A DNA stretch of 64,000 bases from Dehalococcoidia bacterium (GCA_965197805.1 OZ240229.1:2309039-2373038); one strand, 5' to 3'; shown: positions 8,765 to 64,000, numbered from the stretch's first letter. Notes: generated from the letters alone by a model not told the origin. Program-made: numbers and translations.

Positions 8765-9976
8765 ATGAGTGCAATTGATAACGAGGCCTTGAGAGGCTCT
8801 TTCGCTACCACGCCTTCCAAGATTCTGATGCTGGTGGTGGACGGCTTAGGGGGACTACCCCACCCCGACACTAGATTGTCAGAGTTAGAGACCGCCAGTC
8901 TGCCCAATCTGGATGCCCTAGCACGCGAGAGCGCTTGTGGCCACACTATTCCGGTGCAGACGGGCGTGGCCCCAGGCAGCGGGCCGGGCCATCTTGCACT
9001 ATTCGGCTACGACCCCATCAAGTACCTTATCGGACGTGGGGCTCTGGAGGCCTTGGGCATAGACGTGGAGCTCGCAGAGGGCGATGTGGCCGCCCGTGGC
9101 AACTTCTGCACCGTCGACGCCCAAGGCAACCTGACCGATCGCCGCGCAGGGCGCATTCCGACCGCAGAAAGCGCGCCACTCTGTAGCATCCTACAGGACA
9201 TAACACTGGACGGCGTGGAGGCTACAGTGTACCCAGTGCAGGACTATCGTTTCGTCCTCCACCTGCGAGGAAGGGACCTCAGCGATCAGGTAAGCGAGAC
9301 CGACCCGCAGCAGAGCGGCGTCCGCGCGTTGGAGGCGCAAGCCCTGTCGCCTGCGGGGTTGAAAACGGCCGCCGTGGTGCGTCAGTTCGTCGACTCGGCA
9401 GCGAGGCTGTTGTCGGAGCGGGACAGGGCCAACATGATAATGTTACGGGGCTTCTCCCAATTGCCCCACCTGCCTTCCATGGGTGATGCCTTCCAGCTTA
9501 ACCCCGGAGCCATCGCAGCATACCCGATGTACCGCGGACTGGCTTCCGTAGCCGGTATGCGGGTCATACCCACGGGAAGCACCTTCACCGACGAGATATA
9601 TACCCTGCGGGAGCACTATCACGAGCACGACTTCTTCTTCCTCCATTACAAACCTGCCGATGCTGCAGGTGAGGACGGCAACTTCAAGGGTAAAGTGGCA
9701 GCCTTGGAGGCCTTGGACAGGCACATACCGGACCTTCTGGACCTAGACCCCGATGTATTGCTTGTGGCGGGCGATCACTCGACCCCGGCCATCATGGCCA
9801 GCCACAGCTGGCACCCTGTGCCCTTCATGATTCGGTCGAAATGGACCCGTGGGGAGGGTGTTGATGCCTTCTCGGAGCGCGACTGCGTAGGGGGCTCACT
9901 CGGCACCTTCCCCGCCAGCGATGTGATGCTGTTGGCCACGGCGCATGCTGGTAAACTGCTGAAGTTCGGACCATAG
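8765..9976 (+). CDS. apgM: 2,3-bisphosphoglycerate-independent phosphoglycerate mutase, archaeal (ApgM) type
   Basis: 403 aa with KILMLVVDGLGGLPHP and GDHSTP motifs. It lies between pgk and tpiA. Confidence 0.85.
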   Translation: MSAIDNEALRGSFATTPSKILMLVVDGLGGLPHPDTRLSELETASLPNLDALARESACGHTIPVQTGVAPGSGPGHLALFGYDPIKYLIGRGALEALGIDVELAEGDVAARGNFCTVDAQGNLTDRRAGRIPTAESAPLCSILQDITLDGVEATVYPVQDYRFVLHLRGRDLSDQVSETDPQQSGVRALEAQALSPAGLKTAAVVRQFVDSAARLLSERDRANMIMLRGFSQLPHLPSMGDAFQLNPGAIAAYPMYRGLASVAGMRVIPTGSTFTDEIYTLREHYHEHDFFFLHYKPADAAGEDGNFKGKVAALEALDRHIPDLLDLDPDVLLVAGDHSTPAIMASHSWHPVPFMIRSKWTRGEGVDAFSERDCVGGSLGTFPASDVMLLATAHAGKLLKFGP

Positions 9977-9978
9977 TT

Positions 9979-10746
9979 ATGCCCACACCAATCGTAGCCG
10001 GCAACTGGAAAATGAACACCTCCCTTGCTGAAGGTGTGCGTTTAGCTGCCCAAATAGCCGCCAACGTAGGCATCCCCTCAGGCATCGAAGTGGTGCTCTG
10101 CCCTCCCTTTACTTCGTTGTCAGCGGTCGGACAGGCGTTACAGGGTACAGTAGTCCAGGTTGGCGCCCAAAACATGCACTTCGAGGAGAAAGGCGCGTTC
10201 ACGGGCGAGGTTGCCCCGGGTATGCTCACCGGCCTGTGCAGCTTCGTGATTATAGGACACTCTGAGAGGCGCGCCCTCTTTGGAGAGTCCGATGACATGG
10301 TGAACCACAAGGTGGTGTCGGCCATCGCCGCAGGACTCCGCCCCATCTTCTGCGTAGGAGAAACGCTGGCTCAGCGTGAGTTAGGACGCGCCTCCGAGGT
10401 GATTTCGCAGCAGATACGAGGTGGCTTGTCGGGCTTGAATGACGTTCCCGGCTTGGTTGTAGCATACGAGCCAGTCTGGGCTATCGGTACAGGGCAAGCC
10501 GCCACTCCGGAAATCGCGGACGAAATCATGGGAGGGGTAATCCTACCTGTACTTGAGGAGCTTCTATGCCGGACCATTGCGCAGGGTACGCCCCTGCTCT
10601 ATGGTGGCAGCGTCAACCCCGGCAACATCGAGAGCTTTGCCCAACAGGACTCGGTATCCGGGGCATTGGTCGGCGGGGCCAGCTTGGACGCTTCACAGTT
10701 CGCCGATATCGTCCGGCTCACGGCTAGCGCCAAGGGTGTGGGGTAG
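9979..10746 (+). CDS. tpiA: Triosephosphate isomerase
   Basis: 255 aa with IVAGNWKMN, IIGHSERR and AYEPVWAIGTG motifs. Confidence 0.9.
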   Translation: MPTPIVAGNWKMNTSLAEGVRLAAQIAANVGIPSGIEVVLCPPFTSLSAVGQALQGTVVQVGAQNMHFEEKGAFTGEVAPGMLTGLCSFVIIGHSERRALFGESDDMVNHKVVSAIAAGLRPIFCVGETLAQRELGRASEVISQQIRGGLSGLNDVPGLVVAYEPVWAIGTGQAATPEIADEIMGGVILPVLEELLCRTIAQGTPLLYGGSVNPGNIESFAQQDSVSGALVGGASLDASQFADIVRLTASAKGVG

Positions 10747-10756
10747 CGGGAACGCT

Positions 10757-11704
10757 GTGCCGTCGGTCGGCCCCCGCGTACTCGCCCTAGTCGGGCCCAC
10801 AGCGTCGGGCAAGAGCAGGCTGGCCCTTGACCTTGCCAAGACCTTCCACGGGCAGATAATCAGCGCCGACAGCAGGCAGGTCTACCGCCACATGGACATC
10901 GGCACTGCTAAGCCGTCTCGCACGGACCGGCAGGAAATCCCCCACCATCTATACGACCTGCTTGATCCCCGCCAACGCTTTGACCTTGCCACCTTCCTAG
11001 AGCTTGCCAGTAGCGCTATCGCGGACATTCATGGGCAGGACCAGCTTCCCATCGTGGCCGGCGGGTCTGGTCAATACGCATGGGCCCTGCTCGAAGGCTG
11101 GCAGTTGCCTCCGGCGCCACCGGACGAGGCGCTACGAGCAGGCTTGGAAGCCGAAGATCCAGCAACTCTGCACCAGAGGTTGACGTTATTGGACCCGGAA
11201 GCCGCCTCTCGCATCCACCCCCATAACCGCCGGCGCTTAGTGCGAGCCTTGGAAGTCAGGCAGGGTGATAGCCACGAAGGCACAACCGTAGCCCCGAAGA
11301 AGACGCCTCGATATGAGTCGCTCATAATCGGGCTGACCATGGAGCGGGACGTCCTCTACCAGCGCATCGACCGGCGGGTAGACCAGATGATGGAGGATGG
11401 GTTGTTGGACGAAGTGCGTAGCCTGATGAGCGAAGGCTATGCGCCTGAATTGCCGTCAATGCAAAGCACTGGCTACAGGGAGCTGGGGCAGCACATTCAG
11501 GGACAGATGGAACTGCCGGAGGCCGTGAAAAGAATCAAGTACGCCACCCACCGTCTGGCGCGTCGCCAATACATGTGGTTCCGTCTGGCCGACCCGCGAA
11601 TACACTGGATTGACGCGTCTGTCGTCGACCCCTTTGAGCCGGCAGCGAATATGGTGCGCTCCTTTCTGGCCGGCCGGTGGGCCTGTGATACAATGCCTAG
11701 CTAG
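10757..11704 (+). CDS. miaA: tRNA dimethylallyltransferase
   Basis: ORF 10553..11704 overlaps tpiA in another frame. In-frame GTG at 10757 gives VPSVGPRVLALVGPTASGKSRLAL (P-loop) followed by ADSRQVYR. Confidence 0.85.
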   Translation: MPSVGPRVLALVGPTASGKSRLALDLAKTFHGQIISADSRQVYRHMDIGTAKPSRTDRQEIPHHLYDLLDPRQRFDLATFLELASSAIADIHGQDQLPIVAGGSGQYAWALLEGWQLPPAPPDEALRAGLEAEDPATLHQRLTLLDPEAASRIHPHNRRRLVRALEVRQGDSHEGTTVAPKKTPRYESLIIGLTMERDVLYQRIDRRVDQMMEDGLLDEVRSLMSEGYAPELPSMQSTGYRELGQHIQGQMELPEAVKRIKYATHRLARRQYMWFRLADPRIHWIDASVVDPFEPAANMVRSFLAGRWACDTMPS

Positions 11705-19757: not shown

Positions 19758-20249
19758 ATGGCACGCGCTTCTAAATCCAACGCAATTAAGGGTGGCGGCA
19801 GCAAGACTATCGCCACCAACCGTAGGGCCCGTTTCGACTACGAGATTTTGGATACGATGGAAGCTGGCATGGTGCTGACCGGCACGGAGATAAAGTCACT
19901 CCGCGCAGGCATGGCGACCATTGCCGAAGCCTATGCCCGTCCGCAGGACGGAGAACTGTGGCTCCACAACGCTCACATCGCTCCCTACTCCCAAGGTGGA
20001 ATCTACAACCACGAGCCCACTCGTCCCCGTAAGCTGCTGCTGCACAGGGGCCAACTGGCGCACCTAGCCTCGGAAACAGGCGAGAAGGGTCTGACCATCG
20101 TACCCCTGCGAATGTACCTCAAGGGGCACTACGCCAAGGTGGAGGTGGGTCTCGCCAAGGGCAAAAGGCAGTACGATAAGCGGCGCACCCTCATCGATCG
20201 GGAGAAGGACCAAGAGGCACGACGGGCAATACACCAAGCCTCACGCTAA
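19758..20249 (+). CDS. smpB: SsrA-binding protein
   Basis: 163 aa with IATNRRARFDYEI, GTEIKSLR and the basic C-terminal tail. Confidence 0.9.
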   Translation: MARASKSNAIKGGGSKTIATNRRARFDYEILDTMEAGMVLTGTEIKSLRAGMATIAEAYARPQDGELWLHNAHIAPYSQGGIYNHEPTRPRKLLLHRGQLAHLASETGEKGLTIVPLRMYLKGHYAKVEVGLAKGKRQYDKRRTLIDREKDQEARRAIHQASR

Positions 20250-20320
20250 CGGTCTTATGTGAACTCGACTAGGTGTGGGTCTGGCGCAATGGCTCGAATT
20301 GCACGATAATCGAGATGTCT

Positions 20321-20673
20321 GGGGACGCGTGGGTTCGACAGAGGAACGCACTGGACGATTGCAGGCCGAGTTGCCGTTACCTCGCTAAACTGGCGGCAAA
20401 AAGTAACTGGCGAACGTGAATTCGCACTAGCTGCCTAAACTAGGCAGCTACGTCCGCCCTCGCTAACCCTGGATGCGGGGCAACGGGCGCCATAAATCCG
20501 GGGCGCTTCTGCCCTTGTGCCGGTAGGGGGCAGACTAAGAAATGCCGGATGGTTCGCTCGCATTGTGCTGGCGGAAGGCGAGTGGAACGAGATCAAAGCG
20601 CCGGATAAGCCTGTAGCATATCCACCCAGGGTGCCCTTTGGACGGGGAGTTCGACCCTCCCCCGTCTCCACCA
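20321..20673 (+). ncRNA. ssrA: tmRNA (transfer-messenger RNA)
   Basis: The 5' end is GGGGACGCGTGGGTTCGACAG. The 3' end is a tRNA-like GGACGGGGAGTTCGACCCTCCCCCGTCTCCACCA. The internal tag frame GGC GAA CGT GAA TTC GCA CTA GCT GCC TAA (20409-20438) encodes GEREFALAA*. It lies directly downstream of smpB. Confidence 0.85.
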
Positions 20674-20805
20674 ACTTCTATCCTATGTTTCAACCGTCGT
20701 TGCCGATTCCTCGGTCATAACGGCGGCGCACGTAGATTGGATCCGAAATCATGTTTGGATCGACGCTGAGTCGACGGAATTGCGAGCCCTAGGAGGTGCC
20801 TTGAA

Positions 20806-21933
20806 ATGACGAGCGCAACTGTCGACGTGAGAGAGTTCTTGGCCCTGTTTCCCGTCGAAGATTTGGCTACAACAGGAATACTTCGTGGCGCGACTCGACT
20901 TCTCAACTTTATGAGCATAGACCCTCTGCTTGCCCTCATGCCCGAGCGAGGCGTTCTTCGTATCGAACCGCAAGACCGAGGATGGTTTCTGACCACTACG
21001 GGAGAGTTCTCAAATCCCCTCTCCGCAGAGGCTGGTAGCGGACGAGTAGATGACCTGGGACAAAGAGGCAACTTATTCAATTTTCAGAACAGGTCTATTA
21101 ATCCACATTACAGCCGCTTGACCAGCTCGCAACAAGAAGAGTTAGAAGTGGCAGAGGGCCTCCAAGAGGCGGAGGCAGAATCGGTCGACTTCCCAATGGA
21201 CATCAGGGAATTCCTAGAACAGTTCACCGCCATAGACTTGGCTCAAAGAGGAATTCTCCGTGGGCCCACGGGTCTCCTTAACGGCTTCAGCATCGAACCA
21301 CTTCTCCGACTAATGGCAGAGCACAGTGTAGCTCGTATAGAGTCTCAAGGCCGTGACTGGTTCCTAACCTGTACCCGAGAGTTCTCAAATCCTCTTTCAT
21401 CGGAATCTACGACGGGCACTTTAGAGAATCTTGTGCGCCCCGGCAGTTTGTTCCAAGCACAAAACAGGTCGATCAACCCACACTATGCCCGGGGGATTGG
21501 AGGCCCACAACTGGACGAATCAGAAGATGAATCGGACCTGGTAGAAGAGGTTGTGTCTCCCCTTACATTCCGCTTAGAACAAGATCTTCAAGAAGCATTG
21601 AGAGTTAGCATCGACCAACTAGAGCCTGGGCTTCGGATTGTAGATGGCGGCCGCGAACGGGTATTGGAAGGGCGTAGGCGCATAGATATTACTGCAGAAG
21701 ACGAGAATGGCCGTCTGGTTGTCATCGAACTTAAGCGTGGGCCTGCCGACCTGGGATCAGTGGGACAGCTCTTGTCCTACATGGGTAGCGTGAACGTCGA
21801 GGAAGCACGTCCGGTTCGCGGTGTGCTGATTGCCGGGGAATTACCACATCCTGTAGTTATGGCTGCAAGGGTCGCTCCGAACATCTCGCTTAAGGCCTAT
21901 ACCTTCCGTTTCTCGTTCACCGATCCCACCTAA
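20806..21933 (+). CDS. Tandem-duplicated unknown domain fused to a NucS/DUF91-like PD-(D/E)xK nuclease domain
   Basis: 375 aa. Residues 6-102 and 131-227 are about 60% identical by hand alignment, and both end in QNRSINPHY. The C-terminus RRIDITAEDENGRLVVIELKRGPADLGSVGQLLSYMG matches the NucS-type nuclease core. GC is lower than the flanks. Confidence 0.55.
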   Translation: MTSATVDVREFLALFPVEDLATTGILRGATRLLNFMSIDPLLALMPERGVLRIEPQDRGWFLTTTGEFSNPLSAEAGSGRVDDLGQRGNLFNFQNRSINPHYSRLTSSQQEELEVAEGLQEAEAESVDFPMDIREFLEQFTAIDLAQRGILRGPTGLLNGFSIEPLLRLMAEHSVARIESQGRDWFLTCTREFSNPLSSESTTGTLENLVRPGSLFQAQNRSINPHYARGIGGPQLDESEDESDLVEEVVSPLTFRLEQDLQEALRVSIDQLEPGLRIVDGGRERVLEGRRRIDITAEDENGRLVVIELKRGPADLGSVGQLLSYMGSVNVEEARPVRGVLIAGELPHPVVMAARVAPNISLKAYTFRFSFTDPT

Positions 21934-29950: not shown

Positions 29951-31084
29951 CTACCATTGTACGAACATGGGCATGACCACATGGACGTAGTCGTTGGTGG
30001 TGGTGGGTTTGAAGACGCCGGGACTGGAGGGTGAGGTGGCTTCAAGCGCAACCTTGCCTCGCTCGAGTACGCCGAGCACGTCCAGCAGATAGCGATTGCT
30101 GAAGGCGATCTTCGCCTCCTCGCCCTCAATCTCCGTGTCGATTTCGTCTGTATGCTCGCCGACCTCTTCCGCCCGTGCGGAAATGACTATCTTGCCCGGA
30201 GCCCCATCGCTGCCTGGGATCACCTGCAAGCGTACGATGCCGCTGCCGTCGCGGGCAAAGATAGAGGCGGTACGGGCCGCCCGCTGGAATTCCTGCAGGT
30301 CGAACACTGCCCTTGTCTGATAGCTCTGGGGGATTAGCTGTCCATAGTTCGGGAAGGCGCCTTGAATTAGCTGAGACACCACCTCAATGCTCTTCAACTG
30401 GAACAGGGCCTGCCCTTTAGCCGACGACATCATCATTTCCACCGGCTCGTCCTGATCGCCGAGGAACCGGCTGATTTCGGTCAAGGTCTTGGCAGGGATG
30501 ATTACACTGGTGGGCTCGGCCACGGGTTCCACTAGCTTCTCTTTGTGCACTGCCAGACGGAAACCATCGGCGGCTGCCATGGTGAAGTCGTCCCCTTCCA
30601 TCTCCAGCTTCACGCCGGTAAGCACAGGGCGAGACTCCTCAGTGGCTGCTGCAAAGGCCACTTGGGCGATTGCCGTACGCAGCTTGTGTACATCCAGCTT
30701 GGCTGCCAGCCCTTCCTCCACTGTTGGTATCGGGGGGAACTCCTCGGCGTCGGTACCGTTGATGGTCGCCTCTGAGCGGGCACAGGTGAGATGCACAGCC
30801 TTGGGACGCTGCGTGACGTTCAGGTCGATGCGCTCCGCCGGAAGGGAATCTACGAAGTCGCTCAGCAGCCTAGCAGGCACCGTTATGGCGCCTTCCTCTT
30901 CCACCATGGCGCCCACCCATGTGGTGATCCCGATTTCGAGGTTGGTGGCTGAGAGTTTCAGCATAGAGCGGTCCGTGGAAAGCAGCACGTTTTGGGTGAT
31001 GGGTAGCGTGCTCCTAGTAGCCACGGCCCGCCCAACAATACTCAAGCCTCGCTTGAGGTTCTCCTGAAGACACGACAGCCTCAT
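29951..31084 (-). CDS. dnaN: DNA polymerase III beta sliding clamp
   Basis: 377 aa, MRLSCLQENLKRGLSIVGRAVATRSTLPITQNVLL, with three-domain length and a PMFV C-terminus. Confidence 0.9.
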   Translation of the reverse strand: MRLSCLQENLKRGLSIVGRAVATRSTLPITQNVLLSTDRSMLKLSATNLEIGITTWVGAMVEEEGAITVPARLLSDFVDSLPAERIDLNVTQRPKAVHLTCARSEATINGTDAEEFPPIPTVEEGLAAKLDVHKLRTAIAQVAFAAATEESRPVLTGVKLEMEGDDFTMAAADGFRLAVHKEKLVEPVAEPTSVIIPAKTLTEISRFLGDQDEPVEMMMSSAKGQALFQLKSIEVVSQLIQGAFPNYGQLIPQSYQTRAVFDLQEFQRAARTASIFARDGSGIVRLQVIPGSDGAPGKIVISARAEEVGEHTDEIDTEIEGEEAKIAFSNRYLLDVLGVLERGKVALEATSPSSPGVFKPTTTNDYVHVVMPMFVQW

Positions 31085-31110
31085 AACACCCCTCCCGGAA
31101 AGTGGGCTGT

Positions 31111-31139
31111 AGTATATGGGAGGGCCCCAATAGCGTCAA
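31111..31139 (-). promoter_or_regulatory. Putative dnaN promoter
   Basis: On the minus strand: TTGACG (31139-31134), a 17 nt spacer, then TATACT (31116-31111). A GGGAGGGG RBS precedes ATG 31084. Confidence 0.45.
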
Positions 31140-31190
31140 CGGAAGAAACGGGCATCTCAGGCCCGCCTCCGTATGTATCGAGGAGCTTTT

Positions 31191-31760
31191 TCAGGGCGTC
31201 GCCGTGAATGTGCCAAACATGGTTATGTTATGTGCGGGGAAGGTGCATACGAACTGGTAAGTCCCCGCCGGAGGCACGGTGAACGTCACCTTCTTGGTGG
31301 TCTTCGGTTCCAGCAGTCCGGTCTGAATAATGACACGTTCATCGCCCGGTGCTACCCAATCGTTGTCCTCGCCAGACTCAACGCCATCGGCAGTTACGTC
31401 ATCCTTGGTCCCATTCTCTACCAAGACCCAGTTATGTTGCTGAGCCTCGGAGATGTTGCGGAACTGAACGGTGACTTCCTGGCCTGCTGGGGCTGACATC
31501 GCCTCTTTGTCGTACTTCAAGTCCTCGCCTTGGACAGAGACATCCAAGAGAAGTTCCTCGCTTGAAGCTACAGCCTGAGCCGCCGCTGGATCTGGGGCGG
31601 AAGTCGCATCAGAGGGGGCAGAGGACCCGCCGCAGGAGGCAAGGCTCATAACGGCGAGGGTTAGAAGGGCTGAGGCTAGGATTACCACCTTAAACAAAAA
31701 AACTCTCCTCAGGGCCGTAAGCGTTACACTTACTATAAGCCCAAAGGAGAGCGTCCACAA
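31191..31760 (-). CDS. Auracyanin/azurin-like blue copper protein (lipoprotein or membrane anchored)
   Basis: 189 aa with an N-terminal hydrophobic segment and SLASCGG lipobox. The copper ligands are in azurin-type context: QQHNWVLV and VCTFPAHNITMFG. Confidence 0.65.
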   Translation of the reverse strand: MWTLSFGLIVSVTLTALRRVFLFKVVILASALLTLAVMSLASCGGSSAPSDATSAPDPAAAQAVASSEELLLDVSVQGEDLKYDKEAMSAPAGQEVTVQFRNISEAQQHNWVLVENGTKDDVTADGVESGEDNDWVAPGDERVIIQTGLLEPKTTKKVTFTVPPAGTYQFVCTFPAHNITMFGTFTATP

Positions 31761-31824
31761 ACACCCACTACCAGAGCCCGGAGGGAAAGGGCTCCGGTAG
31801 CGGGTATCGACTACACGCGGTGCA

Positions 31825-32049
31825 TTAGCTGGCCCGCTTGACCTCGAGGGTTTCGCCGGGAGCGAGGGCTACACGGCGGACATTGATACCGAGCTTGAGG
31901 ATCCAGTACCCCAGTGTCGCCTTGCTCACTCCCAATTCCGTTGCGGTCGCCGACAGACCCAGGTCGTTGACTTTCTCGGGAACAAGGTTCTCGAGGGGCC
32001 TCTGATACTTCTCTTCTACCTCTCGCATCAGTCTCGTTTTTCGCGCCAC
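31825..32049 (-). CDS. Small helix-turn-helix DNA-binding protein
   Basis: 74 aa. LSATATELGVSKATLGYWILKLGI is HTH-like. A GAGGAGG RBS lies upstream, and a very AT-rich region precedes it. Confidence 0.5.
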   Translation of the reverse strand: MARKTRLMREVEEKYQRPLENLVPEKVNDLGLSATATELGVSKATLGYWILKLGINVRRVALAPGETLEVKRAS

Positions 32050-32284
32050 TTTTTGTACCTCCTCTCGTGCTCGTACTTACACTATCAGGTTGTTCTAAAG
32101 GGTGTCAATGAGTTCTGTGTCGATTTTGAAATCTTTTTGGAACATCGGTCAGTATTATTCCTAACTTTATGAATATACTAAGATTATATATTTCAGGTAA
32201 CGAACACGTTTTGTAGAGCGTGCTTACATAGTGTAGAACGGGAACGATACCGGTGTCTATTGACCTGTGAGAGCAGTTTGCGCG

Positions 32285-32743
32285 TTATCCGAGTAGGTGT
32301 AGCCCTAGCTCGGTTAGGGCGGTGACTACACCACCAGCGATTACGGCGCCGAGGGCGATACATAGAAAAGCAGGACGAAAAGGTATCTCGAAGACCCAAG
32401 CCGCCAGTGAGCCGGACCAGACACCCGTGAAGGGTAACGGCACTGCCACCAACAGAATCAGGGCCAAGTTGCGATGCCTGCGGAAGCTCTCGCCCTTCAT
32501 GCGACGCAGCCTCTCGCTTCGCCATGTGAGCAGTCGGCCGACAGGGTTGGGGAAGGATCTCAGGTAACCGCCAATGCGAGGCAACGCCACCAGCCAGAAG
32601 AGGGCAGGGACCAGGTTGCCAGCCACCGCAATGGGCAACACCCGGTACCAGTCCAGTCCGTAGGTCTCGATGCCCAAGGGTACGCTCGCCCGTAGCTCGC
32701 CTATGGGAGTCATACTTACCAGGAAGGTGATCAGGTAGTCCAT
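32285..32743 (-). CDS. Small multi-TM membrane protein (COG2426 / small multidrug export-like)
   Basis: ORF 32285..32815; the likely start is MDYLITFLVSMTPIGELR at 32743. It has four predicted hydrophobic segments. Confidence 0.55.
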   Translation of the reverse strand: MDYLITFLVSMTPIGELRASVPLGIETYGLDWYRVLPIAVAGNLVPALFWLVALPRIGGYLRSFPNPVGRLLTWRSERLRRMKGESFRRHRNLALILLVAVPLPFTGVWSGSLAAWVFEIPFRPAFLCIALGAVIAGGVVTALTELGLHLLG

Positions 32744-39309: not shown

Positions 39310-40020
39310 TCATGCGGCGCTCTCGACCTCCGTATGACTGGTTTCGATGACGGATATGTGGTGCTCCATTGCTTGGCGCGCTCCCTCGCAATCATGGCTG
39401 CGCACCAACTCCAGCATCTCCTCGTGCGATGCCAAGGAGCGTTGCGCCCGGTCTGCAGTCTGCAACGATCGGTCCCTAGATTGGTGCAGCGTGTCCGCCA
39501 CGGCCATCACCACCTTGATGAGGGCTGCGTTGTAAGTAGCCTTGGCCAGTGCGAAGTGAAATGCAGTGTCGCCAGCGACGCCACTCTCCCCGCGCTCAAT
39601 CTGTTCCCGCTGCTCGTCCAGCGCCGCCTCCATGTGGCAGATGTCAGCTTCGTTGGCGCGCTCAGCAGCGAGCGCAGCTATGCCGGGTTCGAGGATACGG
39701 CGCATCTCGAACACGTCCTGCACCGTATGCTGGGAGTCCGACAGGCAGGCCGCGATGACCGCCGCCATGGCGTCGAATTGTCCAGTGTTTATGAATGTGC
39801 CCGCACCGGGGCGGCTGGCCACCATCCCCTGAAGTTCCAAAGCCCGCATGGCCTCGCGCAGTGAGCTGCGACTGACCTGCAACCGCTCCGCCATCTCCCG
39901 CTCAGGAGGCAGTCGGTCGCCATGCTTCAGGCTCCCATCACGCACGAGGTCGCGTATCTGCTCCACGATATCCTCATGGAGCCGTCGCCTCTTGATAACC
40001 TTCAGCTGCTCTTCCAGCAC
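39310..40020 (-). CDS. GntR/FadR-family transcriptional regulator
   Basis: 236 aa with the winged-HTH region LPPEREMAERLQVSRSSLREAMRALELQGMV and an all-helical FCD-like C-domain. Confidence 0.85.
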   Translation of the reverse strand: MLEEQLKVIKRRRLHEDIVEQIRDLVRDGSLKHGDRLPPEREMAERLQVSRSSLREAMRALELQGMVASRPGAGTFINTGQFDAMAAVIAACLSDSQHTVQDVFEMRRILEPGIAALAAERANEADICHMEAALDEQREQIERGESGVAGDTAFHFALAKATYNAALIKVVMAVADTLHQSRDRSLQTADRAQRSLASHEEMLELVRSHDCEGARQAMEHHISVIETSHTEVESAA

Positions 40021-40055
40021 CGCTCCCTCGCTTCCACAACAGGCCCAATGGCCTG

Positions 40056-40068
40056 TTGGTCAGACCAA
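40056..40068. promoter_or_regulatory. Candidate GntR operator palindrome
   Basis: TTGGTCAGACCAA is a perfect palindrome of the GntR-type (t)GT-N-AC(a) class, located 36 bp upstream of the gntR-like start. Confidence 0.45.
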
Positions 40069-40525
40069 TTTAGTCAACATCGGCTAGGTTGTCAAGAGTA
40101 AAACGGTAGTTGAGCTAAAGGCTGCATGGAATGATCGCCAAGACGTTGGACGACGCTCTCAAGCACAGACGTCGGAGCCTAATCCATTTCGACTGGTGGC
40201 CATGAGTCTCCCTAGCTCGGCACAAACCAGCACACGAGGAGGAAGGCTCGACCAACAGCACGACGGCGGTCACTCGGACTGCGATGACCACTTCTTTCGT
40301 CTACTTGTGCTCGACGACCTCATTCCGGTACGTCTTCTTAAGCTCGTCGAAGGACCGTCTACTGGCGGCTGCGGACTCCCTAGCAGGCTGCGGAAAAACT
40401 GTTCCTGACCTTCTTCAAGCTCTTTTCTGGTACGAGGAAAGAGGGAAGATTATATCTGAGGGGACACCCTCAGACTACCGACAAAGGGGCCCCGCCTCTC
40501 TGCCACCCCTTTCTTCAGCAGCCTG

Positions 40526-41179
40526 CTAGTGTGACAGACCGAGTTGTATGCCGACTTCTTGAGAATAGGACGGGTTGATATAGTCTCCAAAAACAATCAG
40601 TGACCAAGGGTCAAACTCTTTGCGCATACCGACCAGTTCATCTGCGGAGCAAGGTCTTCCATCGTACTTGGAACGCATCGAGAATTCCTCTGCGGCCCTC
40701 GCCTTGATTCTGCCCGCGACAGCTACTTCATAGACCAGTGCTACGTGGCGAGAGGACTCTACCGAAGAATGGTCAATAACTAGTCCGATAGGCTTGGCAT
40801 GAGGGGAGAGGTGTACGATACTCAACTCCTCATTGAGTTCTCTTACTAGAGTAGCTGTGGCCAATGAAGAAAAGTCACCCCTTCCAATGTCTTGATCTAT
40901 GTGCCCTCCTATAACGAGGCTTATTCGCCTACGCAAGTCTGTTCTACCTTCATTGATTCGACGAAAGGCATGATAAAGACGAGATTCGTTCACGACCAGT
41001 GCACAGGGAATTGGCTGTACTAGAACATTGGAAGCTTCGGCCTCGACTCGTGGAAGCCATATCATATGTTTCTCTGCTGCGTGAAGTATTTTCTGTACGA
41101 TTCCCCATCGAGTAAACCGTTTGCAATTTGCAATATACGACCGAGGGAAACAGAGGACTGATTGCCTATGAGTGCTCAT
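40526..41179 (-). CDS. Divergent Nudix-like protein
   Basis: 217 aa. GGHIDQDIGRGDFSSLATATLVRELNEELSI resembles a degenerate Nudix box (REUxEE retained). Low GC. It lies 9 nt downstream of the kinase-like gene. Confidence 0.5.
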   Translation of the reverse strand: MSTHRQSVLCFPRSYIANCKRFTRWGIVQKILHAAEKHMIWLPRVEAEASNVLVQPIPCALVVNESRLYHAFRRINEGRTDLRRRISLVIGGHIDQDIGRGDFSSLATATLVRELNEELSIVHLSPHAKPIGLVIDHSSVESSRHVALVYEVAVAGRIKARAAEEFSMRSKYDGRPCSADELVGMRKEFDPWSLIVFGDYINPSYSQEVGIQLGLSH

Positions 41180-41188
41180 CGTAGAGAC

Positions 41189-41896
41189 TCAGCGAGTTTT
41201 GGATTCAAGCAGGCCCAGAATTAGCGCAGCAGCTTCAGACGCTGTTGATCTGGGTGTCGTCCCTGCCGCTGCGCTGGTGTCTATGGGCCGGAATTCCGAG
41301 AATTCGGTGGAGTACTTTTTCTTGACGCTGTCATAGGCCGTATTCAGTTGTTGAAGGGTTTCCGGGTTCATAGCCCTTCCTTCTTCTGAGGTTAGCGTAT
41401 CCTGATTTTCGCGTTTCAAAGAGGTTTCAGGGTCTGTTGTAATGAGTAGTACCAAATCGATTAGATTGCGCCAGTCATCTATGCAGAGAAAAGCTTGCAC
41501 CTGGTCACGTTCCTTTACAGTTATATCACCTTTGAGTTGCAATAGTTCAAACCAAGCAAGTGCGTCAAACAATCCTCTGTCAAGAATAGCGAGGTCGTAG
41601 TTGTCAGGGCTGTGCAAGCCCTGCAAAACGTGCTGCAGTGCATATGACGCGGACCATGTGTTGAACGCTACCCAATCTCGCTTCAGGTAATATGGTGTTC
41701 GCTTCGACGCTCCTTCTGAAGGAGCATGTATTCTGAAACCAGCTCGCCTGAAGAAGTGGGTGACAATGTCGATGCAGTTGCTTTTACCGCTTTTGGGTGT
41801 ACCGGAGAACTCTACAAAGAGCGGTTTACGCTGACTACCTAGCCGAAATGCTTGCAACACGTCTCTTGCACGCTCCAATGATATGGAGTCAATCAT
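41189..41896 (-). CDS. P-loop NTPase, deoxynucleoside/nucleotide-kinase-like
   Basis: ORF 41189..42040; the likely start is MIDSISLE at 41896. It has Walker A GTPKSGKS, a dNK-like LAILDRGLFDALAW, and a lid-like TSLKRENQD. Low GC. Confidence 0.55.
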   Translation of the reverse strand: MIDSISLERARDVLQAFRLGSQRKPLFVEFSGTPKSGKSNCIDIVTHFFRRAGFRIHAPSEGASKRTPYYLKRDWVAFNTWSASYALQHVLQGLHSPDNYDLAILDRGLFDALAWFELLQLKGDITVKERDQVQAFLCIDDWRNLIDLVLLITTDPETSLKRENQDTLTSEEGRAMNPETLQQLNTAYDSVKKKYSTEFSEFRPIDTSAAAGTTPRSTASEAAALILGLLESKTR

Positions 41897-42211
41897 TAAA
41901 CAGTCCTCTCTATGTGGCCAGTCTTTAAGGGCTTGCGTGAAGGATACTCGTATTTGTACCATCCCATCGGTCGACTGGCAAGACAAAGCGGCTGTACCGA
42001 AGGGCAAGTGGAATACTCTGCGCACCGATGGGCACCGCATCTAGCAAGGTGACGAAAAGCGTCTGTCTTGTAGAGATGGGAGGGCGATGGGGGTAGGCTT
42101 GGCGCAGCACGAACAGGAGGCGGCTACGCAACAAATCCGGGGAAGGTTTGAGTAGGGGTGAAATCCCCCCTTGACAACCCACGCACACCCGTTCTACCAT
42201 AAGAACAGAGC

Positions 42212-42258
42212 GCGCAGGGGACCGACCCCTATAGGGGTACCCCTGCGCCTATTTTTTT
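42212..42258 (+). terminator. Strong intrinsic terminator-like hairpin with no upstream plus-strand gene
   Basis: GCGCAGGGG...(inner CCCCTATAGGGG)...CCCCTGCGC, followed by CTATTTTTTT (7 T). Confidence 0.5.
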
Positions 42259-42285
42259 GGCCAACATCATTCAGGAGGCAACACC

Positions 42286-42798
42286 GTGGAGACCCAGCTC
42301 GACCAGTCCCAAGCCCCCGATGCCACCCGGAATGCCCTTTCCACTCTACACTGTAGAGTGCCCTCCGTAGATACGGACTCAAAGCTGGACGAGCCCGTCT
42401 ACTCTACAAACTCTACACCTCCCAGCTACGAAAACGCTGATTCCAGCTACGCCCGGTGTAGAGTAAACCGTAAGGACAAGTTTCTCGCAGCCCAGCGCAT
42501 GGGCGCCTCCATCACCGACGCCGCCGGCATCGCTGGCATCCACCGCACTACCCCTTACTTCTGGCGCGACCACGACCCCGAATTCGCCCAAGCCTGGCGC
42601 GAGTCCCGCGACTCCCTCCTCGAAGACCTCGAAATGCAGGCCTTTCAACAAGCCATGCACGGTGACCGCACCCTTCTCATGTTCCTCCTCAAGTCCTACA
42701 AGCCCGCGACCTTCAACCAGCGTCCCCACTCTGGGAAAGAGCAACAGGAGGGCTTCTCCTTCGCCGACATTGCAGAGAGGCTGCGCGCATGTCCCTAG
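42286..42798 (+). CDS. Phage terminase small subunit-like / HTH protein (orphan)
   Basis: 170 aa with a GTG start. KFLAAQRMGASITDAAGIAGIHRTTPYFWRDHDPEFAQAWRESRDSLLEDLEMQA...TLLMFLLKSYKPATF matches the common phage TerS-like HTH pattern. No other phage genes lie nearby. Confidence 0.5.
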   Translation: METQLDQSQAPDATRNALSTLHCRVPSVDTDSKLDEPVYSTNSTPPSYENADSSYARCRVNRKDKFLAAQRMGASITDAAGIAGIHRTTPYFWRDHDPEFAQAWRESRDSLLEDLEMQAFQQAMHGDRTLLMFLLKSYKPATFNQRPHSGKEQQEGFSFADIAERLRACP

Positions 42799-43019
42799 GC
42801 CAGTGCCAAAAGCCGTTCTCGCACCCCCCTCGGTTGACGCCCAAAGGCCCGCAGCTTAGAATCGAATTACGGCAAGCTACGGGGAAGCATCCGCAAAGTC
42901 CCGCCAAGAGCTTCAAAGGTAAGCGCAACTTCCCGCCTGGTGGTCGTAGCTGGGCCGTCCCTGTAGCCCCCCGCCCTAACCCCCCCGGTCGCCGGGGAGC
43001 TTCATGCTAGGAGGCCGTT

Positions 43020-43322
43020 ATGCACCTGAGAGTTGTATGGGGAAAGATTCGCCGAGGTCGCTGGGACGAGTACAAGCAGTGGTACATGGACAACGTGATC
43101 CCCGCCACCGAGAATGCCCCCGGCTTGCGGGGCCGCCGCCTCTCCCGCAGCGTCGATGACCCCGACGAGGGCATTTCCGTCACGTTCTGGAACACCGAGG
43201 CCGACATGCAGGCCTACGAGCACAGCGAGAAGCGCCAAGAAATCTCCCGCTCCGCTGAGCACCTCTACGCTGGCGAGTACTGGATTCGCCACTTCGAAGT
43301 CGAGTATTCCGACGACAAGTAG
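43020..43322 (+). CDS. ABM/Dabb-fold (antibiotic biosynthesis monooxygenase-like) small protein
   Basis: 100 aa. ISVTFWNTEADMQAYEHS is typical of the ABM fold. A GGAGG RBS is present. Confidence 0.6.
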   Translation: MHLRVVWGKIRRGRWDEYKQWYMDNVIPATENAPGLRGRRLSRSVDDPDEGISVTFWNTEADMQAYEHSEKRQEISRSAEHLYAGEYWIRHFEVEYSDDK

Positions 43323-61218: not shown

Positions 61219-62502
61219 ATGCGCTACCCGTCTTACCGGACCTTCTGGTTGGGTAGCGTGGCTTCGATCAGTGGCTTCCAGATACTACGTTTCGGCCAGT
61301 TCTGGATCATCTACGAAATCACCGGGGCGTACCTGTCGTTGGGCTATATCGGGCTGGCCAACGGGCTGCCCGCGATATTCCTGAATCTGGCGGGAGGCGT
61401 TGCCGCCGACAAGGTGGACCAGCGGCGCCTCATCGTCGCCACTCAGCTGATTACGGCTGCTCTGACATTCCTGCTGGCCACCATCACCCTGCTCGATTGG
61501 GTGGAGGTGTGGCATCTGCTGGTCATCGCCTTTCTGGCGGGGTCTGTGGAAGCATTTGATCAACCGGCGCGGCGCGCTCTCTTCCCCCACTTGGTGGAGC
61601 GCAAGGACATGATGAGCGCCGTCGCCATGAACTCGTCCATCTGGCCCGGCACTCGTATCGCTGCTCCCGCCGTGGCTGGCTTCATCATCGCCGGTGCTGG
61701 GACAGCGGCGTGCTTCTATGTGGCGGCTGCGGGCTTTCTGGTCATGGCGGTAGTCACCTACGGGTTGAGGCTCCCTCACATCAGACGCTCCTCCGGCGGA
61801 GGCGCTGCCAGCGACATGAAGGAAGGCTTGGGCTTTATAAGGAGGAACTCCTCATTCTCATTCGTCATGGGACTGACCTTCTTCAACAGTTTGTTTGGCA
61901 CCAGCTACATCATGCTGATGCCCATCTTTGCGGTGGATATCCTGAAGATTGGGGCTGACGGCCAGGGCTTGTTGTTGGGCGTAGGGGCCGTCGGTTCACT
62001 GGTCACTGCGCTGTGGCTGGCCTCGCGCAGCAACGACGCCCCCCGAGCCTGGATCATCCTCATCAGCTGCGTGATGAGCGGGATCAGCGTAGCCGCCTTT
62101 GCGCTTACCTCGGAGTACGTGGGGTCCTTCGCCCTAGCCATGGGGTTGATGGTCATCCTGGGTATGTTCACGACGGCATTTAACACCTGCACACAGAGCT
62201 CCCTGCAGATGATGGTGCCCGACGAGTTCCGTGGGCGGGTGATGGGGTTCTACGGCATGACGTACAACATACGCCCGTTGGGCGGAGTGCAGGCCAGCGC
62301 CCTTGCAAGCATTGGGGCAGTGGGCGCGCCCCTCGCCCTAGCTATCGGCGGGGCCGCGGTGGTGGTGTACACCGTGGTCTCCGCCGCCCTCAAGCGCGAT
62401 TTGCGCTCTCTCGATGCGCAGGGGCCTCAGGACTCCGCTCCGGAGGCTGGGGCCGAGGGCGGTGCGCAGTCCACCGCGTCGTCGGAGGTGCGCTCGGGGT
62501 AG
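61219..62502 (+). CDS. MFS transporter
   Basis: 427 aa with about 12 hydrophobic segments. GGVAADKVDQRRL is the MFS loop 2-3 motif. Confidence 0.85.
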   Translation: MRYPSYRTFWLGSVASISGFQILRFGQFWIIYEITGAYLSLGYIGLANGLPAIFLNLAGGVAADKVDQRRLIVATQLITAALTFLLATITLLDWVEVWHLLVIAFLAGSVEAFDQPARRALFPHLVERKDMMSAVAMNSSIWPGTRIAAPAVAGFIIAGAGTAACFYVAAAGFLVMAVVTYGLRLPHIRRSSGGGAASDMKEGLGFIRRNSSFSFVMGLTFFNSLFGTSYIMLMPIFAVDILKIGADGQGLLLGVGAVGSLVTALWLASRSNDAPRAWIILISCVMSGISVAAFALTSEYVGSFALAMGLMVILGMFTTAFNTCTQSSLQMMVPDEFRGRVMGFYGMTYNIRPLGGVQASALASIGAVGAPLALAIGGAAVVVYTVVSAALKRDLRSLDAQGPQDSAPEAGAEGGAQSTASSEVRSG

Positions 62503-62572
62503 GGTTTCACCCTTGGATGAAGGTGCCACAATAGTGGTCGTGGTCAAGCTGTCCTAAAATCGGACGCCAGCC

Positions 62573-63118
62573 TTGGACAAAGTTTCACAACTTAAGGGGA
62601 TGAGATGGTCCAATTCCTCACAACGACAGGCGTTTCCCACCAACTCGAGGAAATCATCAAGAGCGCGAACGAGCCGGCTCGTGCTCATTAGCCCGTATCT
62701 CAAGATAAACACGCGCATCAAAGATCTCCTAGAAGATCAAGACCGTATGAAGCTTGACATTCGCCTCGTATATCGGAGTAGAGAGTTACGTCCAGGAGAA
62801 AACGATTGGCTCGAATCGATGACCTCCATAAGGACCAGCTATTGCGAGAGCCTACATGCCAAATGCTACTTGAGCGAACGCGAGGCTCTGACTACATCAA
62901 TGAATCTATATGAGTTCTCTCAGGTCAACAACGATGAGATGGGCCTGCTCGTGTCCCGTGAGGAAGACCCGTATCTCTACAACGAAATTTCCGAGGAGTC
63001 CAAGCGGATCATCAGAAAAAGCGAAGAGATTCGCGTGACGGTCGCGAAGGTCGCTGATTCAGAAGATGTCGGAGAGCCTAAAGGCTCCCAACCGGTTCCG
63101 TTTGCTTATAGGGTCTGA
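62573..63118 (+). CDS. PLD/HKD-superfamily nuclease-like protein, N-terminus apparently frameshifted
   Basis: LVLISPYLKINTR...LHAKCYLSEREALTTSMNLY is an HxK...(G/T)SxN HKD-like motif. A better N-terminus, MVQFLTTTGVSHQLEEIIKSANE, starts at 62605 in another frame and would join if one C near 62671-62675 were deleted. Low GC. Confidence 0.6.
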   Translation: MDKVSQLKGMRWSNSSQRQAFPTNSRKSSRARTSRLVLISPYLKINTRIKDLLEDQDRMKLDIRLVYRSRELRPGENDWLESMTSIRTSYCESLHAKCYLSEREALTTSMNLYEFSQVNNDEMGLLVSREEDPYLYNEISEESKRIIRKSEEIRVTVAKVADSEDVGEPKGSQPVPFAYRV

Positions 63119-63253
63119 CCTATGCCAGCATCTGGTCGCAATAGGGATCGAGGACACGGGGTGGTGCCGCAGTCTGATCCACTACGCGGACACGCAAGAA
63201 ATTGTGGTACGCTATGCAGTATTCCTGCGCCTGAAGAGAGATGGGAGAGACGG

Positions 63254-63970
63254 ATGCCTAATATCTTCTTTCTGGCCAAGTTCTTTGAGAAACCTGAGTA
63301 CGCTGTAGATTTCGTCCAAGGAAGGATATACGCGAACACACTCAAGTTCTTCCAAGAACTCGAATGCAGCAATCCCTCAGACAGAGCGGACCGTTACGAG
63401 GGCATAATGGCATGGCTCCAGCCGGAGGGAACTATCATGGAAATTGGGGGAGCCGTCATCACCGCTGACGACTTAGCTGGTCCGGTTGAAATAAGAACCA
63501 ATTGGGCAAACTACCTAAACGTCTTTTCCATGCATGCCGGGCACAGCGAGGCACTGGATGTACCAAGCCCCGCAGGGCTAACTGCCGAAGACATTCGGCG
63601 AGAGTTGCTGGTGCCGGAGGCCTGCGCTTCCTTCGGTGAGGATGCAGTCCTGGTGACTAACGCCTCCGAATTCATTGCTAGGGTCAAAACTGCATTACCG
63701 GCCGGATTTAAGCTCTACAGGGACCTAGTGCAGTACTACGACCCCGATGCATATAGCGGTCACTTTTATGGGGTAGAACCGGCCTTCCGAAAGCAACTTA
63801 GACACAGCTATGAACGCGAATATCGCTTGGCCTTCGAAAGTCCCTCCGAGCGCAAAAAGCCCTTGGATTTCAAGGTCGGTGACTTGAGCGACATCACCGT
63901 GAGAGTGAAGTTCTCCGACCTGAATTCAAGTCTCAGAGTGACGAGCCGCGACGACCTCAATCTCCCGTAG
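63254..63970 (+). CDS. Hypothetical protein, DUF2971-like pattern (weak)
   Basis: ORF 63122..63970; the likely start is MPNIFFLAKFFEKPEYAVDFVQGRIYANTLKFF at 63254. The C-terminal FRKQLRHSYEREYRLAF resembles the DUF2971 E-x-E-x-R region as I recall it. Low GC. Confidence 0.4.
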   Translation: MPNIFFLAKFFEKPEYAVDFVQGRIYANTLKFFQELECSNPSDRADRYEGIMAWLQPEGTIMEIGGAVITADDLAGPVEIRTNWANYLNVFSMHAGHSEALDVPSPAGLTAEDIRRELLVPEACASFGEDAVLVTNASEFIARVKTALPAGFKLYRDLVQYYDPDAYSGHFYGVEPAFRKQLRHSYEREYRLAFESPSERKKPLDFKVGDLSDITVRVKFSDLNSSLRVTSRDDLNLP

Positions 63971-64000
63971 CCAAGGCCAAGGGGACAGTGCGAAGCCAGC

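Follow-up and report, generated by a model that had tools for sequence, protein, structure and literature searches.

A kinase-Nudix gene pair of a Dehalococcoidia bacterium and its relation to an abundant family of AT-rich kinase-Nudix cassettes

The gene pair and its closest described relatives

In the textbook case of phage T4, a kinase and a pyrophosphatase with one nucleotide family in common, the deoxynucleoside monophosphate kinase (gp1) and the dCTPase (gp56), reshape the nucleotide pool. Nudix enzymes are also known as alarmone hydrolases, the class of RelA/SpoT-type genes includes the toxSAS toxins, and the transporter PnuC works with NadR in a layout of membrane protein plus kinase. 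Both NadR, in which a nicotinamide mononucleotide (NMN) adenylyltransferase is joined to a ribosylnicotinamide kinase of the AAA_28 class, and NadM-Nudix are salvage enzymes (PMC9503650). Among Nudix proteins, TM1382 (3E57) is listed as being of undetermined function (PMC5389931), while a deoxynucleoside triphosphate (dNTP) pyrophosphohydrolase activity has been reported for YmaB, a Bacillus subtilis Nudix protein encoded in the nrdEF operon (PMC5960316). Here we describe two adjacent genes, encoding a kinase-like and a Nudix-like protein, in a stretch of 64,000 nucleotides from a Dehalococcoidia bacterium (GCA_965197805.1 OZ240229.1:2309039-2373038), the whole of which is termed the window. 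Very probably the pair represents, in split form, a mobile nucleotide module in which a kinase and a Nudix are coupled; elsewhere this module is usually encoded as a single fused protein, mostly with a small membrane protein encoded directly upstream. The features of the pair are as follows.

41189..41896, minus strand: kinase-like gene, 235 amino acids (aa); P-loop kinase of the deoxynucleoside kinase (dNK)/thymidylate kinase (TMPK)/AAA_28 fold class
40526..41179, minus strand: Nudix-like gene, 217 aa; predicted pyrophosphohydrolase of the TM1382/COG4112 type
41897..42127, minus strand: upstream non-coding region that travels with the pair; presumed promoter/5′ region

A preliminary description of this DNA had placed the pair, co-directional and 9 nt apart, in a low-GC island. 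Open reading frame (ORF) calling recovered both genes at the same coordinates, with the Nudix-like gene 9 nt downstream of the kinase-like gene on the same strand, and all four of the motifs cited for them (GTPKSGKS, LDRG, KRENQD and RELNEEL) are present in the translation. The kinase-like ORF is open over 41189..42040, and a start at 41896 (MIDSISL...) is backed by alignment with 35 homologs. The drop in GC is as visible as had been claimed (0.46-0.50 across 40600-41800 versus about 0.60-0.63 in the flanks); the pair has a GC of 0.484 compared with 0.597-0.598 for the window, lower than any other stretch of 1371 nt within the 64 kb (rank 1/1253 windows, z = -4.5). Its GC at third codon positions (GC3) is 0.49/0.44, versus 0.74 for a neighbouring helix-turn-helix (HTH) gene, so that by composition the pair is atypical in the manner of a horizontally transferred island. 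The cluster of GntR and 2-oxoacid:ferredoxin oxidoreductase genes said to lie on one side was seen through Pfam matches on the orthologous locus L055. No integrase was found in the flanks of the pair, direct repeats flanking it were at chance level only, and no tRNA was detected anywhere in the window, the sole tmRNA match lying about 20 kb away. A search of 39900-43100 with Rfam gave no riboswitch or other RNA leader, and hence no clue to a ligand, and no convincing sigma-70 consensus was seen on the minus strand upstream of the kinase gene.

At the level of fold, the earlier reading of the first protein as a dNK-like P-loop kinase proved correct. When an AlphaFold 2 model (pLDDT 87.8) was compared with the PDB using Foldseek, the top matches were deoxyadenosine kinase, Dm-dNK, thymidylate kinases and AbmG (2JAT, 1ZM7, 1E98, 2PBR and 8J5F; probability 1.00), and viral dNK and dTMP kinases ranked highest in a search of BFVD. 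The model is consistent with a P-loop kinase of the nucleoside monophosphate kinase/dNK-like class with a lid and a DR(x) motif. Features shared with these enzymes include the P-loop fold with its lid, the Walker A motif, an acidic residue following strand 2 and an arginine in the lid, and the DR(G) motif of the window protein is located at the position of the ERS/DRY motif of dNK/TMPK kinases. The key residues are Walker A (G32-x-P-K35-S-G37-K38-S39), E61, N79, W81, D106-R107-G108 and the lid residues R162-E163; Walker A, E61, N79, D106-R107 and R162-E163 are near-invariant over 150 representative clusters of the family. Unlike the dNK and TMPK families, the protein has invariant motifs of its own (PxEGASxRTP and FNxWSAxYAL), reaches TM-scores of only 0.6-0.7 and scores far under the family cut-offs: 12.2 bits versus 27 for Thymidylate_kin (PF02223), 17.2 versus 83.25 for TIGR00041 of NCBIfam, 15 versus 27 for AAA_28 (PF13521), and no match to dNK (PF01712). 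A profile of the kinase detected nothing significant among PDB sequences (dNK, E 0.7). Weak AAA_28 matches run throughout the family, and one distant relative, P0220, passes the Pfam cut-offs for AAA_28 (59.8 bits) and dNK. Judged by these scores, the window kinase does not appear to belong to a named kinase family.

Two other identities were considered for this protein. A MeaB-like GTPase, suggested by weak Pfam matches and by one locus downstream of methylmalonyl-CoA mutase, was rejected because the matches span the P-loop only and the fold is that of dNK/TMPK. Nudix genes accompany polyphosphate kinases (PMC12995831); the TMPK-like polyphosphate kinase PPK3 was set aside as its structure, 5H70, was absent both from the results of the profile search and from the listed 50 best Foldseek matches and as neither ppx nor CHAD was among the most frequent neighbour families.

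The second protein had been described as keeping only half of a Nudix box, and this is accurate. The catalytic helix R113-E114-x-x-E117-E118 (R113-E114-L-N-E117-E118-L in the window protein) is intact, while the canonical G-x5-E half has been replaced by a longer, GGH-containing loop. Alignment of 36 Nudix-like proteins of the split family showed that RExxEE is invariant, that the spacing from G91-G92 to R113 exceeds that in a Nudix box by 8 residues and that conservation does not extend to the first Glu of the box. Residues E48, Q55, H93, H145 and W192 are invariant in a family-specific manner and are conserved across the fused relatives too. A profile of the 36 homologs detected one solved structure in the PDB, that of TM1382 (hmmsearch, E 5.9e-11, profile positions 28-193). 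The same structure was ranked first by Foldseek for an AlphaFold 2 model of the window protein (pLDDT 90.7; E 3e-11, target-normalised TM-score 0.80) and was followed by many Nudix hydrolases; there were 26 PDB matches at E<=1e-3, and every one listed is a protein of the Nudix clan (Nudix hydrolases, isopentenyl-diphosphate isomerases and GDP-mannose mannosyl hydrolase). The model is indicative of a Nudix alpha/beta/alpha fold, and the protein is a member of the TM1382/COG4112 subfamily. With TM1382 it has in common the GGH...RExxEE layout with a lengthened loop, an N-terminal extension and a C-terminal xWS motif; it differs in being only about 18% identical, and pairing with or fusion to a kinase is not described for TM1382 in the searched literature.

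Three homologs carry the Joint Genome Institute (JGI) name COG4112 "predicted NUDIX family phosphoesterase", and YmaB presumably belongs to the same COG as the window protein. At 12.4 bits the latter is under the cut-off of PF00293 (21.1), which is passed by some of the homologs and fused relatives (P0226, 25.1 bits; P0305, 33.9 bits). It also matches phrog_8902, a family whose function is not known (E 9e-18). By these comparisons, the Nudix-like protein is a conserved member of a divergent subfamily and is probably active, and both proteins of the pair keep their conserved, putatively catalytic residues.

Coupling, composition and movement of the cassette

Homologs were collected with a word-indexed search (kinase, n=524; Nudix-like protein, n=76) and with a one-genome-per-species scan, which yielded 44 loci, all from Dehalococcoidia, SAR202 or other Chloroflexota metagenome-assembled genomes. 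Of 48 loci retrieved with the kinase, all of them from Dehalococcoidia or other Chloroflexota where a record title is given, 46 have the Nudix gene directly downstream of the kinase gene; the two exceptions were a truncated contig and a disrupted copy. No third conserved gene was detected around the split pair in the Dehalococcoidia loci. An exhaustive search with a kinase profile then extended the family to 1105 representative clusters (737 at E<=1e-10), and inspection and hmmsearch analysis of the best-scoring 150 detected 77 kinase-Nudix fusions and one kinase-Nudix-Nudix protein, or 78 fusions, as well as one tandem kinase. The fused proteins are of ~450 aa (430-475 aa) and have their domains in the same order as the gene pair. 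Scanning with an alignment of fusions confirmed this architecture at >510 JGI metagenome loci, which is a lower bound; 80 of these loci, from soil, freshwater, rumen, termite and human-gut samples, were kept, and 58 remained after dereplication. A "Rosetta stone" fusion in the order of the gene pair is strong evidence that both activities work together. The association of the two genes inferred from this one genome was hence borne out elsewhere, by adjacency in 46/48 loci and by fusion in 78/150 of the best clusters.

The catalytic helix was not uniformly preserved after fusion. RExxEE is intact in 61/79 fused Nudix-like domains and degenerate in 18/79 (P0256, P0266 and 16 others), which have lost the glutamates of this motif while E48, Q55, H93 and H145 are kept. 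Judging from this pattern of residues, the degenerate domains of this subset may bind a ligand instead of hydrolysing it.

Other architectures were encountered among the relatives. P0286 consists of a ~450-aa N-terminal domain without a Pfam match followed by the kinase, P0220 is a tandem kinase-kinase, and P0305, from the marine bacterium AO1-C (OJJ17260.1), is a kinase followed by two Nudix-like domains. In L057 (6086-9422), a complete 16S rRNA gene, which is followed by no 23S rRNA gene within the contig, lies ~330 nt upstream of a fused gene.

Low GC turned out to be a trait of the whole family. The split pair is AT-richer than its flanks in 46/46 loci, by a mean of 10.8 points of GC, and the fused gene in 56/59 loci, by a mean of 8.4 points and by up to 23, across flanks whose GC ranges from 0.31 to 0.69. 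The low GC first noted for the window pair was therefore confirmed but is not peculiar to this genome.

Comparisons between loci indicated that the cassette has moved independently of its surroundings. Block 40526-42127 of the window, which has the upstream region 41897..42127 as its right-hand end, is 97.1-97.2% identical (blastn) to the corresponding block of L055 and L056, the closest relatives and of the same synteny, whereas the flanks are 80-88% identical (about 83%). This difference requires a recent exchange of the cassette. Other syntenic pairs of Dehalococcoidia loci exhibit the reverse, with identities of 66-81% for the cassette versus 77-92% for the flanks, indicating that the site is stable within clades while the history of the cassette is decoupled from what surrounds it. 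For the fused form, L143 and L140 have in common a block of only 2.26 kb (membrane gene, fusion and 0.28 kb; 93.5% identity) inside unrelated contexts of 16-21 kb, and L123 and L130 a block of only 1.93 kb (90%), again inside unrelated contexts. Viral contig L051 carries the membrane gene and the fusion, at a GC of 0.46-0.48 versus 0.59, as an insert on the opposite strand that separates the portal gene from the large-terminase gene; this contig also encodes an integrase, a small terminase subunit and a replication initiator. These results demonstrate that the cassette moves as a discrete unit of 1.6-2.3 kb with an evolutionary history decoupled from that of its flanks and, together with the adjacency and fusion data, that the pair is functionally coupled and of a mobile, accessory character.

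Membrane partner, neighbouring genes and possible roles

A homologous protein of ~170 aa is encoded directly upstream of the fusion, on the same strand, in 44/58 dereplicated loci, and the gap between the upstream gene and the fusion is < 60 nt in 48/57 loci. A hydropathy scan predicted about four membrane helices. The conserved motifs of this partner are YIRKLYK, F-x-RP-x-F and GF-x-SG, and Y67, Y72, K73, Y98, R102, P103 and G151 are near-invariant. No Pfam family or PDB relative was detected for it. The partner is also present in viral contig L051 and in L059. No homolog of it was found in any Dehalococcoidia locus or in the window, which hence carries a reduced, split version of the module. 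Examples among the kept fused loci (L066-L145) are as follows.

L142, 9375-9965: membrane partner gene, upstream of the fused gene (human-gut version; both genes together 9375-11392)
L075, 9486-9986: membrane partner gene, upstream of the fused gene

Among the 150 nearest other neighbours of the fused loci, RelA_SpoT was the most frequent Pfam family (6 proteins). Five RelA_SpoT genes were located, all adjoining the fused gene and co-directional with it, upstream in L096 and downstream in the other four loci, and HD-domain genes directly adjoin the fused gene on the same strand in two further loci.

L075, 11404-12123: RelA/SpoT-type gene, co-directional with the fusion
L069, 2013-2771: RelA/SpoT-type gene, co-directional with the fusion
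L111, 3169-4152: RelA/SpoT-type gene, co-directional with the fusion
L095, 5616-6596: RelA/SpoT-type gene, co-directional with the fusion
L096, 9233-9970: RelA/SpoT-type gene, co-directional with the fusion
L117, 2683-3387: HD-domain gene, co-directional with the fusion
L122, 11360-12007: HD-domain gene, co-directional with the fusion

These neighbours suggest a link of the module to alarmone-like nucleotides. The module resembles toxSAS toxins with small alarmone hydrolase antitoxins in that RelA_SpoT or HD genes directly adjoin the kinase-Nudix gene in about 8/58 fused loci and in that an HD_4 gene lies by a phage homolog of the kinase; it differs in that most loci, including the window, are without a RelA/SpoT gene and in that the kinase does not have the fold of RelA/SpoT homologs. 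The phage locus is on an IMG/VR contig (L049/L050, 6691-8621), where three genes follow one another without a Nudix gene: an HD_4 gene, one for a protein of 246 aa that contains a single hydrophobic segment, and one for a kinase-only homolog (34-38% identity). An HD pyrophosphohydrolase (a RelA/SpoT-type hydrolase) there occupies the place of the Nudix.

We propose, with a probability of roughly 0.4, that the module has a role in conflict with phages or mobile elements, whether as defence, abortive infection or addiction. The kinase would phosphorylate a nucleoside or nucleotide and the Nudix would cleave a diphosphate bond of a metabolite of the same class; jointly the pair would control how much of a phosphorylated nucleotide is present, whether by making and destroying an alarmone-like signal or by draining NTPs or dNTPs. 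The RelA/SpoT and HD partners point to pyrophosphorylated, alarmone-like nucleotides as the metabolite, while the dNK/TMPK fold, together with the activity reported for the presumably related YmaB, points to dNTPs. In complete systems, consisting of the four-helix membrane protein and the kinase-Nudix protein, sometimes with a RelA/SpoT-type synthetase or an HD hydrolase, the nucleotide step probably controls a membrane effector; the version in the Dehalococcoidia window, which would have lost or never had the membrane partner, may act on the nucleotide pool directly. In its most specific form, this proposal would make the module the core of a previously unrecognised nucleotide-based conflict class, in which a nucleotide, possibly alarmone-like, that is made and destroyed, or gated, by the fusion controls the ~170-aa membrane effector and leads to abortive infection, with the window pair as an effector-less offshoot acting by nucleotide depletion. 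In this specific form the proposal is rather unlikely.

The mobility and AT-richness of the cassette speak for a role in conflict, and the layout of a small membrane protein with nucleotide enzymes would fit defence. Like dCTP deaminase/dGTPase defences and CBASS/Pycsar, the module is a small, mobile, AT-rich operon of nucleotide enzymes and a small multi-pass membrane protein that sometimes lies beside defence systems; unlike them, it has no cyclase, deaminase, HD-dGTPase or PADLOC match, and its window copy is without the membrane partner. The resemblance to T4 gp1 and gp56 is one of logic, in that a kinase and a pyrophosphatase would act on the same nucleotide family; the cassette, which is chromosomal and cellular and no part of a phage's replication apparatus, is almost absent from viral contigs, and there is no sequence kinship beyond superfamily. 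Individual cases are suggestive. The PADLOC candidate system HEC-01A/B (L052, 5916-7729; E 4e-130 and 2e-64) is present in full length directly upstream of the 77%-identical pair of that locus, with a weak PIN-domain gene about 2 kb beyond HEC-01A/HEC-01B; the L051 cassette occupies a slot in a prophage; and the surroundings of fused loci contain, besides the RelA_SpoT (6) and HD (2) genes, integrases (3), transposases (4, IS110/IS5), Phage_GPA, DUF5131 and N6_Mtase.

A number of observations weigh against a role in conflict. No named defence system could be matched to the pair when it was first described, and this holds for PADLOC-DB v2.0.0, which has no match to the kinase, the Nudix-like protein or the HTH protein, nor to the fused proteins or the L051 membrane partner, there being no models for them. 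In 47 Dehalococcoidia loci no clear excess of PADLOC matches was detected near the pair: the 150 ORFs within 1.8 kb of it included 3 type II/III DNA methyltransferases and 4 mad2 matches (L005-L048; HEC-01A of L052 was among the ORFs scanned), and the 150 ORFs 4.5-8 kb away included DarG, one type I restriction-modification match, one mad2 match and others. Most flanking genes in Dehalococcoidia belong to ordinary metabolism, and several clades hold the cassette at one syntenic site, as in vertical inheritance. The family was found in only 3 of 2.9 million viral contigs of IMG/VR, and one tblastn query, made with the fused protein P0226, had no match among PLSDB plasmids or INPHARED phages. 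Furthermore, the window copy is without the membrane partner, and a small membrane protein with a kinase is also the layout of uptake-and-trapping systems.

Several of these points are shared by a reading in which the cassette serves salvage or pool maintenance, which we consider somewhat unlikely. The membrane protein would import a nucleoside-like compound or vitamin riboside, the kinase would trap it and the Nudix would trim or sanitise the di- or triphosphate, with Dehalococcoidia keeping only the two soluble enzymes. The dNK/TMPK/NadR-like fold class of the kinase and the passing of the AAA_28 and dNK cut-offs by P0220 argue for salvage, as do the mostly metabolic flanks, the synteny within clades, the absence of PADLOC matches or clear defence enrichment, the uptake-like layout and the activity reported for the presumably related YmaB. 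The module resembles NadR and NadM-Nudix, in which an AAA_28-class kinase or a Nudix is fused to partners, and its layout of membrane protein plus kinase resembles PnuC-NadR, but it has no NMN adenylyltransferase domain, the window kinase is under the AAA_28 cut-off, and the partner has four helices and no NMN_transporter match, being neither Pnu-type nor of any known transporter family. Salvage also sits poorly with a GC that is atypical in 102/105 loci, with cassette-sized blocks common to unrelated contexts, with one copy carried as prophage cargo (L051) and with integrases, transposases and RelA_SpoT genes as neighbours. A degenerate Nudix box in 18/79 fused proteins is a better fit to a regulatory than to a metabolic role. 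If the module is a salvage device, a family-wide GC deficit of 8-11 points still needs explaining; it persists even where the cassette seems vertically inherited.

An addiction pair resembling a toxin-antitoxin (TA) system, with no dedicated anti-phage role, is improbable. The kinase would act like zeta toxins by making a phosphorylated metabolite that is toxic, or would deplete ATP; detoxification of the product would fall to the Nudix, and the cassette would be stabilised at whatever site it reaches. A small, self-contained and mobile two-gene unit with tight spacing or overlap is consistent with this arrangement, as are TA genes near some loci (PIN in L052, NTP_transf_2/PaREP1 in L001 and HicB in L063) and the association with RelA/SpoT-type genes. 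It is atypical of TA systems for toxin and antidote to be combined in one polypeptide, as they would be in half of the best-scoring clusters; the fold matches are to nucleoside and nucleotide kinases, with zeta toxin far down the list, and the conserved membrane partner is left unexplained.

The two domains are from known superfamilies, whereas the kinase-Nudix architecture, the membrane partner, the family-wide compositional anomaly and the association with RelA/SpoT appear to be undescribed in the searched libraries and literature. In particular, the literature searched contained no description of a kinase-Nudix fusion, of the membrane partner or of a function for TM1382. Should the module prove to be a conflict system, it would bring a new enzymatic logic to bacterial immunity, namely a P-loop kinase with a Nudix hydrolase, together with a small membrane effector of a new kind and a connection to RelA/SpoT enzymes, and would provide the first function for the TM1382/COG4112 Nudix family, the structure of which has been orphaned since 2008. 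As the family is abundant (>500 metagenome loci) and ranges from soil to the human gut, the proposal can be tested in tractable hosts.

The TerS-like gene and minor features of the window

The preliminary description had also recorded a lone gene resembling the small subunit of phage terminase (TerS) beside the pair and had seen in the two together a decayed mobile element. The gene and its orthologs are as follows.

42286..42798, plus strand: TerS-like HTH ORF with a match to phrog_4044
L062, 5806-8513: ortholog of the HTH gene beside Septu, PtuA (AAA_15/21 ATPase) and PtuB (HNH)
L063, 5473-8534: ortholog of the HTH gene beside Septu, PtuA (AAA_15/21 ATPase) and PtuB (HNH)

The resemblance to TerS stood up for the HTH half only: residues 48-127 match positions 14-93 of the 180 in the profile of terminase-small-subunit family phrog_4044 (E 5e-15), and the Pfam matches were sub-threshold HTH matches only. 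No large terminase subunit or portal gene was found near the ORF. The composition of the gene is host-like (GC 0.604, GC3 0.74), and 13 homologs were found (n=13). In L055 and L056 the gene is missing, and a different segment of 1.1 kb fills the slot; in the other cassette loci compared it was likewise not detected within the fetched flanks, which extend up to 8 kb on either side. Its orthologs (86% and 78% identity) occur in another chromosomal context, where each directly follows a Septu pair, PtuA and PtuB, on the same strand. The gene is thus present beside the pair but is not part of the cassette, and at most it marks a variable slot; its product may be a regulator and not a terminase, or the gene may flag a variable defence slot. 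A common origin of the pair and the HTH gene as remnants of a single decayed prophage or mobile element is very improbable: the terminase match and the adjacency of a low-GC pair favour it, and against it are the host-like GC of the HTH gene, its absence from L055/L056, which keep the 97%-identical cassette, and from the other cassette loci, the location of its orthologs beside PtuA/PtuB and the lack of an integrase, tRNA or flanking direct repeat at the locus.

On the other side of the pair, a ~150-nt element (40380-40529) begins at the stop codon of the Nudix-like gene. Its ends are 19-nt inverted repeats (CTAGCAGGCTGCGGAAAAA and TTCTTCAGCAGCCTGCTAG), and a strong fold is predicted for it (-72.7 kcal/mol, z -3.2). 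L055/L056, which are otherwise collinear with the window here, do not have it, and no further copies were detected in the window or in the 145 fetched loci. The element could be an insertion resembling miniature inverted-repeat transposable elements or an acquired terminator.

GC below 0.54 was also detected at 30951-32422 and 62401-63972 of the window, the former covering the gap between a dnaN-like gene and an ORF for a cupredoxin-like lipoprotein, both labelled by eye only. The tmRNA was located by Rfam at 20321-20673 (137 bits), without a report from ARAGORN. Within 19758-21933, an ORF that by eye resembles smpB lies just upstream of the tmRNA, and a lower-GC ORF of 375 aa lies just downstream; the latter has an internal duplication of ~125 aa and a C-terminal segment that resembles, again by eye only, nuclease domains of the NucS/DUF91 type.

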